Positions 26,945 through 49,464 of a stretch of 50,008 nt of DNA are shown piece by piece; position 1 is the first letter of the stretch, and each line of letters starts with the position of its first letter. Where the stretch lies: the sequence record PX418923.1; one strand, given 5' to 3'. This DNA is from a phage. A program made the position numbers and the translations under genes. The notes beneath the pieces are model-generated. The model searched no databases. It saw only the letters and a program-made list of their open reading frames with translations, and had not been told where the DNA came from.

Positions 26945-27301
26945 TTAGACTGCTACGTTTCGGAAACGAATTACCAGAACACCACCAGTACCACCAGTTT
27001 GAGCAAGCACGCCAGTGTTGTTAGCAGCAAGCATAACCGGGGAGGCTTCAGTGGCAGCGAAAACAGCTACACCACCAATGGTCACAGCAGAGACAGTACC
27101 TTCAGCGAAGGAGTCATCTACAGCAACTACCTCTACACCGCCCGGATAAATCGGGAATTTAAACGGCAGGCCGGTGTCTTCAAGGTTCCATACGAACTCG
27201 TATTGATAACCTTCGGTCTTGAACACGCCACGAGTACCACCCGTGCCACGAGGGCCGTAGTGGTTACTGACGTTCAGACCAGTGTTGGATTCATAACCCA
27301 T
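26945..27301 (-). CDS. Hypothetical virion protein, possible capsid decoration
   Basis: ATG at 27301 preceded by AGGAG, directly after capsid gene. Confidence 0.45.
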   Translation of the reverse strand: MGYESNTGLNVSNHYGPRGTGGTRGVFKTEGYQYEFVWNLEDTGLPFKFPIYPGGVEVVAVDDSFAEGTVSAVTIGGVAVFAATEASPVMLAANNTGVLAQTGGTGGVLVIRFRNVAV

Positions 27302-27314
27302 TATTATTCTCCTA

Positions 27315-28256
27315 TTAGTAAGCGGTTGCAGAAGTAGCCAGGAGACCCAGAGTATCCAGACGTTGGATACCAAAGCCATAGCGGCAACGAACTACGTGTT
27401 CATCACGAGCACGATCTTTGTTACGCTCACCTTCGGATTTGGGCATACGACGCCATGCACCCATGATCGGCTTGGTTTGGTCGTCCAGAATACACATGAA
27501 CAGGTTACCAACATAACCATTGCCAGTGGTGGTGCCATCGTTGTAGTTAGCTACATGCAGACGGTTGGAAGTGAGGATATCCCAGCCGTACAGGTTCATG
27601 ATGAAGCGTTGACCACGAGCCATACCGCTTTCGAGAATCATCTTACCGAACTCGGTTACGTCGTGGGTGATGGTTACCAGACCATTCAGAGTGGCCTCAG
27701 CTACCGGGTCAACAATGAAGACACGGCCTTCAGCCGGAACGTTAGCCTTATCGAAGGCTAGACGCATAGCGATGAGGTGCTTCAGTGCAAAGACGCCATT
27801 GGTCTCAGCGGAGACAATAACGTGCGGGAAACCGTTAACATTGTGAGGACCAGGGTTAGCTGCGAAGTACTCAGCACCAGTCTTCAGGAAGTCGGTTTCG
27901 AAGGTTTCTTGGATAGCACGAGTGGACTCAGCAGCACGCTCTGCCATCAGACGGTCAATATCAGTACCATCTTCACGCAGGTCGTCAGTCACATACCAAG
28001 CATCGCCTTTGTATTCGGTGATTTGGAAAGTGATCTCGCCAGTCTCAATCGGGTTGTAAATCAGCGGGGTATCTTCTTCTGCTTCTTGCAGAGTTACCGA
28101 GCCGATGGTTTTGATATGCAGGGTCTCGCCCGAGCCGAAATCAGAAACGTTGCGATAGAAAGTTTCCGGCAGCAGACCATCATGCAGGTTCAGAAGAATG
28201 AACTTGCTATATTGTTCACTCTCGATAAACGCACGGGTATTAGAAGTAAGTTGCAT
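27315..28256 (-). CDS. Major capsid protein
   Basis: 313 aa, directly after scaffold-like gene; AAGGA RBS; call by position and composition. Confidence 0.6.
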   Translation of the reverse strand: MQLTSNTRAFIESEQYSKFILLNLHDGLLPETFYRNVSDFGSGETLHIKTIGSVTLQEAEEDTPLIYNPIETGEITFQITEYKGDAWYVTDDLREDGTDIDRLMAERAAESTRAIQETFETDFLKTGAEYFAANPGPHNVNGFPHVIVSAETNGVFALKHLIAMRLAFDKANVPAEGRVFIVDPVAEATLNGLVTITHDVTEFGKMILESGMARGQRFIMNLYGWDILTSNRLHVANYNDGTTTGNGYVGNLFMCILDDQTKPIMGAWRRMPKSEGERNKDRARDEHVVRCRYGFGIQRLDTLGLLATSATAY

Positions 28257-45699: not shown

Positions 45700-46248
45700 A
45701 TGAATATGTATGGTGATGATTGGCAATATGCAGACTCCCGACTTAACAATACTATTGTTAGGCATGAAGGTAAGGGAGTCCTTGTTAACAAGGTGATGAA
45801 GAAAGGAGCCCTGATCACTTCTCTTCGAGGTGGTGACGGTAATGTTGTTAACCTTGATGACCTAGACTTGACTCCTGTAAAGCTAGGTTTTGCCAATATT
45901 GGCAATACAATCTCTTACCTTACTCGTATGCCAATGCGTAGGGATTGGAGACAAGGGCTCCGAGTTGGGAACTTCACTTCAGTATACGGCACTCCTGCCG
46001 GTCTAGTTAACTACAATGCGTTAGCAGATACTATTGAAGGCATCTACCCAACTTTGCAAGAGTGTGTTGATTCGTCAGCTAGAGTATTGAAAGCTTGGTG
46101 TAGGGAGTGGGCTGTCGGTAATAGTAAGTTGAAAAATAACAGACCACTCATTTACAAAAACCTAATTGTTGGTTGTGTGAGAGACGGTAATCCAGAACTG
46201 AGCGGTGAGTTCATGTTTCTTCGAGAAGCACTACAGGAGGTGCTATGA
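45700..46248 (+). CDS. Hypothetical protein within the amidoligase cluster
   Basis: ATG right after upstream stop; overlaps next start. Confidence 0.45.
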
Positions 46249-47192
46249 AAACTGTAATGCAGTGGTTCGGCATTCAACTACCTACCAAGGGTGACGTTGG
46301 TGTCGAGATTGAGGTGGAGGGCAAGAATTTGCCCAAAGCTTTTGATAGATATTGGCGAGTAGAGGCTGACGGTTCTCTTCGTGGTGAAGATAACGCAGAG
46401 TATGTCCTAGAGAAGCCTATGACTCTTCGTCAAGTTAAGCTTGCCCTAAGTCACCTTAACATGCAATACAAGAAGAACAATTCAGTTGTTGATGACACGG
46501 TACGTGCTGGTGTTCATGTACATATCAACGTTCAACAACTGAACATTGTAGAGCTTTATAACTTTATGACGCTCTACCTTACTCTTGAGGAACTTTTGGT
46601 TAAGTTCTGTGGTCCATATCGAGAAGGTAATTTGTTCTGCCTCCGTGCTTGTGATGCAGAATGGTTGTTGTTCAGACTGTCAGAGGCAGCACGGACTCGA
46701 CAGTTTAGACGCATTCTGACTGATGATAATCTTCGCTACGGCTCTATGAACGTTAAGGCTTTGGGTACGTATGGTAGTCTTGAGTTCCGTGCTATGCGTG
46801 GCACTCGTGATTTAAACCTCATTCATAAGTGGGCTAATATTCTTGTTGATCTTCGTGAAGCTGCTAAGAAGTTTACTGATCCTAAAGATATTATCAACAG
46901 CTATTCTGAGGGTGATTATGTAGCGTTCCTTAATAAATGTCTTGGTGAGCATGTAGAGTTGTTTAAGGACTACGACAACGTACCCAAGATGTTGAACGAT
47001 GGTATGCGACGAGCACAGGACATTGCTTTCTGTTGTGATTGGCAACAGTTCTTCCAAGAAGAAATTGTTCCGCCTGCCCCAGCACCGAGAAAGAAAGTTC
47101 TTAACTATGATTTTGATCCCATTGCGTTCTTTGGTGAAGTACCAAAAGAAATCTTCCCACCGATTTGGGTTGAAGAAGGAGTGCCGTTCTAA
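46245..47192 (+). CDS. Amidoligase (glutamine synthetase-like COOH-NH2 ligase), paralog B
   Basis: [42 protein letters not shown] motifs; GGAGG RBS. Confidence 0.55.
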
Positions 47193-47944
47193 TGTTTATC
47201 TATGCGTACAATAATGCCAGCAAGGCTGGTAAGCAAATCAGGGACATGCTTAATGTAAAATTTATTAAGCATAAAAACTCTAAGTTCAAAGGCTCCCCAG
47301 ATAAAGTGGTGATTAACTGGGGTAGTAGCAATCTTCCAGAAGAAGTTCTTAAGTGTACGGTTGTTAATGCCTCTGTAGCCGTCTCCAGGGCCGCTAACAA
47401 GCGTTCTTTCTTCGAGGCAATGGTAGGGCATGCCCGTACACCAGAATTCACTACAGACAAAGCTGAGGCCCTTAAATGGGTGGATGGTGGAAACACTGTA
47501 GTGTGTCGTACTTTGCTAAATGCAAACAGTGGTAAGGGTATTGTACTTGTAGGGCCAGGTGATGGTGAGCTTGTCGATGCACCTCTGTACACTAAGTATG
47601 TGCCCAAGAAACAAGAGTGGCGAATCCATGTGTTCCGTGGTGAGTGTGTAGACATTCAAAGAAAAGCACGTAAGAAAGATGTTCCTGATGAAGAAGTGAA
47701 CTGGAAGATTAGGAACATTGGTGGTGGTTTTATCTTTGCACGCAACGAAGGAATTAAACCTCATGAAGACATTATTGAACAAGCTATTAAGGCTGTTGAA
47801 GCCTGTGGACTTGACTTCGGCGCAGCAGACGTCATCTTCAATGAGAAAGAACAGAAAGCCTACGTGTTGGAAGTCAATACAGCTCCGGGAGTTGATGGCA
47901 CAACGCTCGAAGGTTATGTCAAAAGATTTAAGGAGTTGAAATGA
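47192..47944 (+). CDS. ATP-grasp ligase (RimK-like)
   Basis: WRIHVFRGE and C-terminal YVLEVNTAPG motifs. Confidence 0.65.
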   Translation: MFIYAYNNASKAGKQIRDMLNVKFIKHKNSKFKGSPDKVVINWGSSNLPEEVLKCTVVNASVAVSRAANKRSFFEAMVGHARTPEFTTDKAEALKWVDGGNTVVCRTLLNANSGKGIVLVGPGDGELVDAPLYTKYVPKKQEWRIHVFRGECVDIQRKARKKDVPDEEVNWKIRNIGGGFIFARNEGIKPHEDIIEQAIKAVEACGLDFGAADVIFNEKEQKAYVLEVNTAPGVDGTTLEGYVKRFKELK

Positions 47945-48198
47945 GCAAGCACATTAACAGCACTAAACTCACAGAAACTCTAACACTCTCGGAGTGCAGA
48001 GACGGATTTTGGCTATATGACTATACTCGCGGCATGAACCTAAGCATGCGAGCAAAAACGCCACAGGATGCCTTCGTAGAGTGCATTTCCTACTACCAGA
48101 AACGACTCGCCGAAGTAGAAAGTGAATACCGTGAACTAACGGCCAAGGTAGACGCCTTTGTAGGCCAGTTTGTTGAAGACTGTGAGGAGTGGAGATGA
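47941..48198 (+). CDS. Hypothetical protein
   Basis: ATGA overlap with ATP-grasp stop. Confidence 0.45.
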   Translation: MSKHINSTKLTETLTLSECRDGFWLYDYTRGMNLSMRAKTPQDAFVECISYYQKRLAEVESEYRELTAKVDAFVGQFVEDCEEWR

Positions 48199-49112
48199 GC
48201 AAGGAACTGGACAAGGCACCGGTAAGGCAGGCAGGCGGAGATGCGCGCAAACTGTCAGACCTCGGTAACGAATTGCACAACCTTTCGTGCTCGATCATTC
48301 ACGAAAACGAGGAATGGGCTGAACAGATCGGCGGCACTGGCGAAGCCGATTCCGGTGGCGTCCGCCCATGGGGAGAGCCGGTCTTGATCCCCTGTGACTG
48401 CGAGACAGAGCAGGCAGAGCCGGAACTGGAGCCGCATATACCTGCACAGAACATCGCTGAGGCCGCAATAGAGCAGTTGATTAAGTCTGGCGCCAAACAC
48501 TATCAGGAATTCCATTTCGACCTCCACCTTGATGGTCAGGAAGGGGCACGCCCTGTTGTCGTGACAGTAGCGTTTTCTGATGGGCCGTCTGCGCACGAAC
48601 TACGCATGAAAGCAGAGCAAGAGCGCGACGCCGCTCTGGCCGAAGTCGAGCGCCTGCGTGAGTCAAAAGGTGACCCTGTTGGCAGCCTCGAAAAGTGCAT
48701 GAAAGTGATGTACGAGCGCGACGAAAACGCTAAGCGGCTGGAAGTCGCCCTGGCCATGGCCGAGGCCGCAGCAGCAAAGGGAGATGCTGCTCGCCAGCAA
48801 TGCGGCGGAATGGAGAGGGAGATCGAGGAACTTCGCGCCGAGGCCCAGGCGCTGGGGCGCATCGTCGACAAGCTGACGCAGTACAACGAGAGTCTTTACG
48901 AAGAAAATACACGACTGCTTGCGGATTGTGAGAAGATCGACAGGGAAGTCGCAGCACTGCGCGCAAAGTTATCAGACCTGCCCGGATGGTTACGGGTTGC
49001 TTACTCGTGGGGTTACATAGGTGGGCAGAACAACCCTAACGGGTACCTTGACGAGGAGAATCGTGATAATTGTGTCAATGAAATCCTTGTTCGTAACCAC
49101 ATCATTACATAA
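48195..49112 (+). CDS. Coiled-coil protein in a compositionally foreign high-GC segment
   Basis: GC-rich codons (GCC, CTG, CGC) unlike the rest of the genome; Ala/Glu/Arg-rich heptad-like sequence; ATGA overlap at start. Confidence 0.5.
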   Translation: MSKELDKAPVRQAGGDARKLSDLGNELHNLSCSIIHENEEWAEQIGGTGEADSGGVRPWGEPVLIPCDCETEQAEPELEPHIPAQNIAEAAIEQLIKSGAKHYQEFHFDLHLDGQEGARPVVVTVAFSDGPSAHELRMKAEQERDAALAEVERLRESKGDPVGSLEKCMKVMYERDENAKRLEVALAMAEAAAAKGDAARQQCGGMEREIEELRAEAQALGRIVDKLTQYNESLYEENTRLLADCEKIDREVAALRAKLSDLPGWLRVAYSWGYIGGQNNPNGYLDEENRDNCVNEILVRNHIIT

Positions 49113-49164
49113 GGAGATTGTATGAGAAACAACAGTAGTAATAAGTCCCAACATAAGGAGAGTT

Positions 49165-49464
49165 ATGAAAGTATTGATTGAGAGTATCAAACGCTGGGCT
49201 AGTGACAGAAATTTGGTTGAAGGCAGCACGCCTAAAGATCAATGCCTTAAACTCATTCAAGAAGTTGGAGAGCTTAGTGACAGTTTGTGTAAAGGTAAAC
49301 CAGCCATTGACGACATTGGCGATTGTATGGTGGTACTAATCATTCTAGCTGAGCAACTTGGATTGTCTGTAGAGGATTGTCTGTATCATTCCTATCAAGA
49401 AATTAAAGACCGTAAAGGTCGAATGATTGATGGCGTATTTGTCAAGGAGCAAGATTATGTATGA
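49165..49464 (+). CDS. mazG: MazG-like nucleotide pyrophosphohydrolase
   Basis: EVGEL and DIGD acidic motifs of the small MazG-like all-alpha NTP-PPase family; GGAGAG RBS. Confidence 0.6.
   Translation: MKVLIESIKRWASDRNLVEGSTPKDQCLKLIQEVGELSDSLCKGKPAIDDIGDCMVVLIILAEQLGLSVEDCLYHSYQEIKDRKGRMIDGVFVKEQDYV

Follow-up and report, generated by a model that had tools for sequence, protein, structure and literature searches.

A high-GC gene upstream of mazG in a PA11-like Pseudomonas aeruginosa podovirus is probably a recently assembled mosaic allele of a hypervariable accessory slot

Introduction

The phage record PX418923.1, analyzed here over its whole length of 50,008 nucleotides (nt; hereafter, the window), is the complete permuted genome of a PA11-like Pseudomonas aeruginosa podovirus (genus Paundecimvirus, Zobellviridae) with a GC content of 44.6%. 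One gene departs from this background: ORF307, an open reading frame (ORF) upstream of mazG, forms a high-GC island. Where does this gene come from, and is it a working part of the phage? An initial annotation had proposed that the island was a recent horizontal acquisition encoding a coiled-coil protein. From comparisons of its sequence with those of other phages and prophages, we consider it probable that the island represents a single allele at a hypervariable accessory slot, recently assembled as a mosaic from the high-GC P. aeruginosa phage and prophage pool.

Results

One gene departs from the composition of the genome

Measured in 924-nt windows, ORF307 is the GC maximum of the 50-kb window, at 0.564 against a mean of 0.447 (standard deviation 0.025; z=4.6). 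The second-highest region, at ~27031-27950, reaches 0.516 and is far weaker. With 300-nt windows, GC is 0.557-0.613 across 48100-48999 and 0.36-0.49 in the flanks. ORF307 also ranks first in GC among 60 non-overlapping ORFs (mean 0.445, standard deviation 0.035), and its GC at third codon positions (GC3) of 0.613, compared with 0.40 in the neighboring genes and a mean of 0.438 over the 60 ORFs (standard deviation 0.071), is surpassed by just two ORFs, which are 60-72 amino acids (aa) long. This bears out the island of about 0.9 kb with GC-rich third positions that had been described there. The island proper covers 48195-48966, and the final ~135-145 nt of the ORF drop to a GC of 0.467. The many antisense ORFs first remarked on are also present, nine of them being at least 40 aa long and some reaching 113-116 aa. 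The four largest have no PHROG match, and Rfam, promoter/terminator and antisense-ORF checks of both strands brought out only the plus-strand gene.

ORF307 is a mosaic of pieces found in unrelated phages

We compared ORF307 with donor-type reference loci from SM1 (L003), an unrelated 93-kb Samunavirus, from JBD44 (L008) and from a P. aeruginosa prophage (L011), with FBPa19, a temperate, integrase-bearing phage, and with the contig carrying protein P0006 (L012). The gene opens with a start module S and runs through module A, half of a Cys knuckle with a small alpha/beta module, and a family core module into modules D and E, to end in a C-terminal domain F (Table 1). Positions 48220-48759 correspond to two non-adjacent parts of SM1 gp62 (97.5-98.6% nt identity). 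From there on, the sequence matches a second gene: 48750-48841 is 95.7% identical to SM1 gp63 and 89% to JBD44 gp57. The longer stretch 48750-49200 is 92.7% identical to the L012 contig. Relative to an SM1-like gp62-gp63 layout, ORF307 differs by two in-frame deletions at microhomologies, of 324 nt and 943 nt. The former, at junction 1, takes out the CxxC half of a Cys knuckle (KCxxCGGTGEADSGG...IPCDCE) that is intact in the relatives P0011, P0012 and P0045. Junction 2 is in frame, although gp62 and gp63 occupy different frames in SM1.

All four joints of ORF307 sit on linker motifs or microhomologies, and the three internal ones keep the reading frame. The EQAGGD linker that forms junction 0 could be encoded in 512 synonymous ways, of which 2 are used among 8 loci, and the VAALRAKLS motif of junction 3 shows 94% nt identity across loci. 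At junction 3, the FBPa19 match stops at 48966, matches to TC6, O4 and IME180 begin at 48944, and PP21 carries a different C-terminal domain after the shared 25 nt. Domain F itself, with 19 invariant columns, occurs only in Paundecimvirus-type loci (HHBS10_2, O4, TC6_046, IME180_b, Ty_28, FBPa8_31 and P0006), and a search of 5.8 billion proteins added one further match. ORF307 is thus an in-frame mosaic of at least four donor-type segments and a C-terminal domain seen only in Paundecimvirus-type loci.

The donor-type loci have a GC of 0.57-0.59, against 0.445 for the backbone of the window. Since the pieces map to high-GC phages up to ~48967, the GC boundary is also the boundary of the shared DNA. 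This bears on the simplest alternative, in which the GC excess is a by-product of Ala, Glu, Gly and Arg codons in an old resident coiled-coil gene and nothing was transferred. ORF307 is indeed enriched in Glu and Ala, and its GC at first codon positions is 0.68. Composition of this kind can hardly be the explanation, however, as the excess extends to the third positions (0.61 against 0.40 in the neighbors), the GC drop falls where the shared DNA ends, and the gene is 92-98.6% identical in nucleotides to the SM1, prophage, JBD44 and FBPa19 loci, which, as fetched, match the window at ORF307 alone.

The slot between ATP-grasp and mazG is rewritten across Paundecimvirus

We then examined the position of the gene in 13 Paundecimvirus-type loci: the window, HHBS10_2, O4, DMTU_1, PP21, PPAT, TC6, PA11, PSA11, IME180, Ty, FBPa8 and a Logan contig with P0006. 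In 12 of the 13, a high-GC member (0.54-0.61) of the same modular gene family lies directly 3' of the ATP-grasp gene, in loci with a GC of 0.42-0.48. A high-GC gene at this place is therefore a regular feature of the genus, and only the content of the present allele is recent. Around it, the ATP-grasp gene of the window is 95-96% identical to its counterparts in TC6, PA11 and PP21. The alleles in the slot all differ from one another, except that PA11 and PSA11 carry the same one. The proposal of a recent horizontal acquisition thus holds for 48220-48966, which shares 92-98.6% nt identity with unrelated phages and prophages, but not in the form of a single foreign gene: the family and the slot are conserved and syntenic among the relatives, while the sequence is not. 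The locus records a recent import of ~0.75 kb into a resident, repeatedly rewritten slot.

The exception is PPAT, where all that remains is ~20 nt from the beginning of PP21_205 and ~45 nt from the end of PP21_102 (L007 ~2451-2560). Because this remnant is kept, the PPAT locus represents a clean loss of the whole cassette, not an empty site. PPAT forms plaques, with a burst of 953 (PMC9348578), and can thus do without the gene.

The slot of TC6, IME180, Ty and PP21 contains two genes, the modular "gene 1" and, after it, a small "gene 2" whose N-terminus is of the MSEVK..SDYDAL type. The same pair is found in SM1 (gp62/gp63), JBD44 (gp59/gp57) and prophage L011; the TC6 pair is 047/046, and over its first 45 aa, gene 2 of L011 shares 95.6% identity with TC6_046. 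Gene 1 and gene 2 form a single fused gene in the window, HHBS10_2, O4 and P0006. TC6, a relative of the window phage, has been described as lytic (PMC6209634), and neither the literature on the genus (TC6, PPAT/PPAY) nor a recent anti-defense survey discusses the slot gene.

Two further arrangements were seen downstream of the slot. In FBPa8, gene 31 (L019 5602-6252) joins 48 aa of the slot C-terminal domain (..EWGYVGGQNNPNGYIDEQDRD) to aa 404-571 of the primase/helicase, which in the window is encoded at 648-2360; the primase/helicase part is 100% identical to PA11. This fusion implies that the 45.2-kb record, which is called complete, has lost mazG, the small genes and the first 403 aa of the primase/helicase, and represents either a remarkable viable deletion or an assembly problem. 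PA11 (L005 4942-6030) and PSA11 (L018) lack mazG and the small genes downstream of it, and in PA11, ORF010 and the primase/helicase come immediately after ORF009 (292 aa, GC 0.61). This shows that mazG is dispensable too in the genus.

Could the chimera itself have arisen during assembly, from reads of a co-cultured high-GC phage or an induced prophage joined at shared motifs? Its junctions do lie on short sequences common to phages, where assemblers can switch templates, and neither the exact chimera nor either of the two junction sequences was found in INPHARED, IMG/VR, the JGI metagenomes or the 5.8-billion-protein database (a 19-mer junction query of IMG/VR and the JGI metagenomes gave 15 matches, all of them chance matches in unrelated contigs of 57-69% GC). 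Such an artifact is nonetheless quite improbable: ORF307 is a single uninterrupted in-frame ORF with native 5' and 3' boundaries, two of its joints are deletions inside donor-type sequence and not switches between donor and backbone, and the same kind of high-GC mosaic occupies the slot in 12 independent Paundecimvirus-type records.

ORF307 belongs to a large and combinatorial gene family

ORF307 is the only copy of its family in the window genome. It matches phrog_5310 (E 5.1e-18), phrog_20462 (E 7.2e-17) and phrog_3956 (E 2.1e-14), whose members are annotated as "hypothetical proteins" (e.g., SM1 gp62, JBD44 gp59, SN gp72, TC6_047 and PA11 ORF009). The core module (RDAALAEVERLRESKGDP..MYERDE.AKRLE), at aa 143-187 of ORF307, is present in 226 phage records, among them Pbunavirus, Samunavirus, Nankokuvirus, temperate JBD-type and FBPa19-type phages, and relatives also occur in many P. 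aeruginosa prophages. Among 120 relatives, 69 carry ESKGDP and 75 MYERD[EK]. Every named member of the family comes from P. aeruginosa, its phages or its prophages. A protein database search returned 617 matches, nearly all in singleton 90% clusters; at high identity, no match spans more than half of ORF307. A profile search over 50%-identity representatives returned 3,457 (E <= 1e-3), 1,325 (E <= 1e-10) and 702 (E <= 1e-30). Family proteins measure 170-670 aa, and in all lineages examined their genes lie in early accessory or replication-proximal regions.

The modules are separated by linkers that come in a fixed order (EQAGGD, ALAQPSP, AERPE, TVAQH, AQHSVPE, VAALRAKLS and AAPGKE) and are 92-100% identical in nucleotides across unrelated phages. 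Among 120 family proteins we counted 66 motif architectures. In place of the full framework S-L1-L2-L3-core-L4-T, ORF307 carries only S, half of Z, the core and D; L1, L2, L3, L4 and the AAPGKE tail (the terminal T motif) are absent, which makes it a truncated or fused derivative and not a canonical member.

Most members have an AQHSVPEG linker followed by the "(W/Y)xLVPxEPTxxM" start of a next module, and ~40% of the family ends in a near-fixed tail, ..AAPGKEGV or ..AAPGKEVGHE, which ORF307 does not have. A C-terminal peptide conserved in this way might tag the protein for docking or degradation. A module of ~110 aa (WTPEHDDLY...WPFSAKWWKP...AEIERLDR) recurs at the C-terminus of SM1 gp62 and in P0003 and P0004. 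A resemblance of the SM1 gp62 C-terminal module to DUF550/MazG-like domains was not confirmed, with no Pfam match. PF26207, flagged on some relatives, stands for "Phage_phiTE_015" and went undetected with our local copy of Pfam. As for genomic surroundings, in temperate relatives a protein with a SutA RNA polymerase-binding domain (PF20661, E 2.6e-11 for JBD44 gp62; L008 3719-4057, L011 6976-7617) is encoded 2-3 genes upstream of the modular gene, and prophage L011 carries a Lar restriction-alleviation gene two genes downstream of it.

We take these observations together in one model. The slot houses a "gene 1 + gene 2" cassette of a modular family that circulates among several unrelated lineages of virulent and temperate P. 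aeruginosa phages and their prophages, keeping the ~55-61% GC of its pool. The linkers may act as homology patches of 15-27 nt, at which recombination during co-infection or with a resident prophage would swap, delete and fuse cassettes, with selection presumably acting on the reading frame. In the window, the ~0.75 kb of imported DNA now forms one in-frame gene 1-gene 2 fusion joined to the genus-resident C-terminal domain.

A maintained gene or a decaying remnant

The main rival to this model is that the present allele is a decaying, functionless recombination remnant, i.e., junk in an insertion-tolerant slot whose ORF stays open as a by-product of its high GC. Several features fit this idea. 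The 324-nt deletion removed the CxxC half of the knuckle, the 12 codon changes from SM1 comprise 10 non-synonymous and 2 synonymous ones, antisense ORFs of 113-116 aa are equally open in this DNA, the usual L1-L4 linkers and terminal T motif are missing, and PPAT still grows well without the gene (PMC9348578). We nevertheless regard a remnant as unlikely. Three internal joints are in frame, one of them between genes that lie in different frames in SM1; a strong Shine-Dalgarno sequence and ATGA coupling are kept; the core is under purifying selection at longer distance, with 13 synonymous and 10 non-synonymous codon differences from SN gp72; domain F keeps its invariant columns across the genus; and a family member is retained in nearly all Paundecimvirus-type loci. 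The in-frame internal joints and the excess of synonymous core changes relative to SN argue for a translated protein.

Our preferred reading, a recently assembled mosaic allele made by recombination at linkers, has to be weighed against a number of observations that count against it. The sample behind the linker identities is small, with 3-8 occurrences per motif, and recent shared ancestry could explain them. Both the codon changes relative to SM1 and the loss of the CxxC half are compatible with relaxed constraint. The PPAT record is flagged "UNVERIFIED" and is fragmentary, and the chimera is known from an assembled record alone. The order of events may have been either import followed by deletions or import of an already deleted donor. 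Finally, homology searches brought no functional domain to light: Pfam, NCBIfam and PADLOC scans of ORF307, the Paundecimvirus alleles, SM1 gp62 and 120 homologs gave coiled-coil noise only, PDB sequence searches, for which ORF307, SM1 gp62 and a C-terminal block profile served as queries, gave nothing, and a Foldseek search of the ORF307 model against PDB and BFVD gave nothing below E=0.1.

Predicted protein and possible function

The start of ORF307 is correctly placed at ATG 48195, where a Shine-Dalgarno sequence, an ATGA overlap and the conserved family N-terminus MSKEL(N/D)KAP coincide. The surrounding 48183-48248 are 80-91% identical to the ATP-grasp end and gene start of TC6, PA11, Ty and DMTU_1. 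In consensus scans, plus-strand promoter and terminator sites within 47700-49400 stood at shuffle level, giving no promoter or terminator of the gene's own. The gene is embedded in an operon and translationally coupled to the upstream ORF.

The protein had been described as an Ala/Glu/Arg-rich coiled coil. Glu (13.4%) and Ala (11.8%) are indeed well above their genome-wide values of 6.5% and 7.6%, but Arg (6.6% against 5.1%) is barely raised and only ~40% of the protein is coiled coil: this character is limited to ~aa 133-260, with a maximal heptad score at 169-266. The AlphaFold2 model is elongated, with a mostly disordered N-terminal 83 aa, then a small alpha/beta unit, and one long helix at aa 164-260 (predicted local distance difference test score, pLDDT, of 85-96); overall pLDDT is 61 without an alignment and 70.8 with one. 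The product is thus predicted to consist of a disordered N-terminus, a small alpha/beta unit, a coiled-coil helix of ~100 residues and a small C-terminal domain. It may oligomerize through the coil and display exchangeable small modules to targets of the host or of rival phages, in host takeover or counter-defense.

PHROG scans of the proteins listed above matched only PHROGs without known function. Pfam on 121 proteins gave, besides coiled-coil noise, a weak DnaJ-type zinc-finger signal only, and PADLOC, which covers defense systems only, gave coiled-coil noise for ORF307. The available expression data come from JBD44, where log2 fold changes for gp59 and gp57 are +2.85 and +3.94 from 2 to 5 min and then -2.4 and -2.3 (PMC11898732, Table S1). 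Based on this early, transient expression, the early or replication-proximal location, dispensability, restriction to one host species and extreme combinatorial diversity, we offer as a tentative guess that ORF307 is a dispensable early coiled-coil protein for host interaction or counter-defense.

A second foreign gene and the boundaries of the slot

The slot also holds a second, independently inserted gene, ORF85, an 85-aa ORF that was passed over when the island was described as lying between the amidoligase cluster and mazG; the neighbors (Amidoligase_2, R2K ATP-grasp and MazG) are otherwise as given there (Table 1). ORF85 has a nucleotide counterpart in none of the other compared Paundecimvirus loci. 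Its tblastn relatives are only 50-63% identical in aa and nearly all come from large E. coli and Klebsiella phages (phi92, PBECO4, 121Q), the remaining matches being one each in a Pseudomonas coronafaciens, a Xylophilus and a Pseudaeromonas phage. It matches phrog_19040 (E 1e-34), a PHROG without known function. An imperfect repeat of the boundary sequence, i.e., the ribosome-binding site (RBS) plus ATGAGCAAG, flanks ORF85, which suggests that it was inserted by recombination there. On the other side of the slot, TAAGGAGA (stop codon plus RBS) is doubled upstream of mazG, its copies lying 44 nt apart, and in TC6 exactly the 44 nt between the copies are gone.

Table 1. Features of the slot, the ORF307 mosaic and the flanking genes (coordinates in the window)
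Feature	Coordinates	Strand	Remarks
ORF307 (305 aa from ATG), chimeric modular accessory gene	48195..49112	+	Island proper 48195-48966
Shine-Dalgarno GAGGAG (48184-48189), start ATG 48195, ATGA overlap with ORF85 stop	48184..48198	+	Read from sequence
Start module S (MSKELDKAPVRQAGGD), ending in EQAGGD-type linker (junction 0)	48195..48246	+	48196-48246 90% nt identity to JBD44 gp59 start
Module A, type of SM1 gp62 aa 111-150	48220..48339	+	97.5% nt identity to L003 2999-3118
Junction 1, 6-nt microhomology GCGGCA	48331..48336	+	In-frame 324-nt deletion relative to SM1 gp62
Half Cys knuckle, small alpha/beta module and family core	48331..48759	+	98.6% to SM1 L003 3434-3862; 97.9% to prophage L011 8260-8694
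Family core module (ERDAALAEVERLRESKGDP...MYERDENAKRLE), most widely shared piece	48619..48765	+	94.6% to JBD44 gp59, 82.8% to Pbunavirus SN gp72, 82.4% to DMTU_1
Junction 2, microhomology CTGGCCA (7 nt)	48750..48756	+	"Gene 1" core fused to module D of a "gene 2"
Modules D (AAKGDAARQQCGGME.EIEELRAE) and E (heptad coil)	48750..48966	+	92.2% to FBPa19
Junction 3, VAALRAKLS linker, site of C-terminal domain exchange	48944..48968	+	25-nt exact match to PP21
C-terminal domain F (LPGWLR..YSWGYIGGQNNPNGYLDEENRD...; also ..EWGYVGGQNNPNGYIDEEDRD..)	48967..49112	+	GC 0.47, backbone-like; genus-resident
ORF85 (85 aa), separate foreign gene in same slot, upstream of island	47941..48198	+	GC 0.47
19-nt imperfect direct repeat (RBS + ATGAGCAAG) flanking ORF85	47931..47949 (left), 48185-48203 (right)	+	AGGAGTTGAAATGAGCAAG vs AGGAGTGGAGATGAGCAAG, 17/19 identical
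Backbone 3' boundary: stop TAA, TAAGGAGA at 49110 and 49154, mazG ATG 49165	49110..49167	+	Conserved in HHBS10_2, O4, L012
Amidoligase_2	46245-47192		Left neighbor
R2K ATP-grasp	47192-47944		Left neighbor
MazG	49165-49464		Right neighbor

Discussion

How does this locus relate to known systems? ORF307 has its start, core and D modules and its half Cys knuckle in common with the members of PHROGs 5310, 20462 and 3956, at up to 98.6% nt identity; unlike them, it is a unique gene 1-gene 2 fusion with two internal deletions and a Paundecimvirus-type C-terminal domain. Phage morons were reportedly described by Juhala and colleagues in 2000 as GC-deviant accessory insertions between conserved genes, and ORF307 resembles them in its deviant composition, dispensability, conserved neighbors and presence or absence among relatives. 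It differs in having no promoter or terminator of its own and in being ATGA-coupled within an operon, and the unit of exchange is a module smaller than a gene and not a transcription unit. For lambdoid phage genes and tail-fiber genes, it is established that mosaic exchange takes place at conserved boundaries or linkers, and the joints of ORF307 likewise fall on short conserved sequences common to otherwise unrelated phages. The linkers of the present family, however, lie inside one ORF, in a fixed order, across podo-, sipho- and myoviruses of one host species. Polyvalent proteins, which Iyer and colleagues are said to have described in 2017 in phages and conjugative elements, are similarly combinatorial strings of small modules on one polypeptide with arms-race-like diversity. 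By comparison, the proteins of this family are small, the 121 that were scanned have no recognizable enzymatic or anti-defense domain, and packaging or injection is unsupported.

A further parallel is lambda Ea22. Ead/Ea22 proteins are known for pro-lysogenic activity and for forming a tetramer through a coiled coil. One may ask whether ORF307 is a homolog with an Ea22-like developmental function. In temperate relatives, the modular gene is located between exo/YqaJ and int, the position of ea22 in the early-left region of lambda (the exo-xis/int region for JBD44 gp59 and prophage P0004), whereas in the window phage it lies in the nucleotide-metabolism/replication operon of a PA11-type podovirus. 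The tripartite layout of a short N-terminus, a coiled coil and a variable C-terminal domain is similar (PMC10834534), as is the mosaicism (PMC10834534; PMC7093339), and a paper mentions an "ea22-like gene" in that operon of JBD44. At the sequence level, this identity failed. The PF13935 (Ead_Ea22) profile, which recovers lambda Ea22 at 1.1e-28 as a positive control, matched neither ORF307 and the Paundecimvirus alleles at E <= 0.1 nor any of 121 proteins, including the 120 relatives, at E <= 0.001; BLASTP of ORF307 against lambda Ea22 gave E=3.1, and the weak PF13935 match in JBD44 is gp50, not gp59 or gp57. The family also has a much larger module repertoire and is carried by strictly virulent phages, for which a pro-lysogenic role would be meaningless. 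We thus consider homology to Ea22 very improbable.

ORF307 is a unique new allele, and a mosaic accessory gene in a hypervariable slot is an already known kind of thing. The locus is a clean but ordinary example of phage mosaicism, and a well-resolved case of a low-GC virulent phage acquiring high-GC DNA from temperate phages or prophages, with breakpoints located to 6-25 nt. The family behind it is large, uncharacterized, unusually promiscuous and extremely recombinogenic, with thousands of 50%-identity clusters. It may constitute a shared combinatorial toolkit, i.e., an early coiled-coil scaffold with small target-binding cassettes that are re-dealt at DNA-identical linkers among podo-, sipho- and myoviruses, both virulent and temperate, though we hold this to be rather doubtful. 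If true, the cassettes would serve counter-defense, host takeover or inter-phage competition, and the island would capture one moment at which a virulent phage takes new cassettes out of its host's prophage pool.

Genes of such a profile often prove to be determinants of host range or counter-defense. The Pbunavirus, Nankokuvirus and Paundecimvirus carriers of the family figure in phage-therapy studies, and if the family has a role of this kind, it would be relevant to the selection and engineering of therapeutic phages and to assessing how easily virulent ones exchange genes with prophages.

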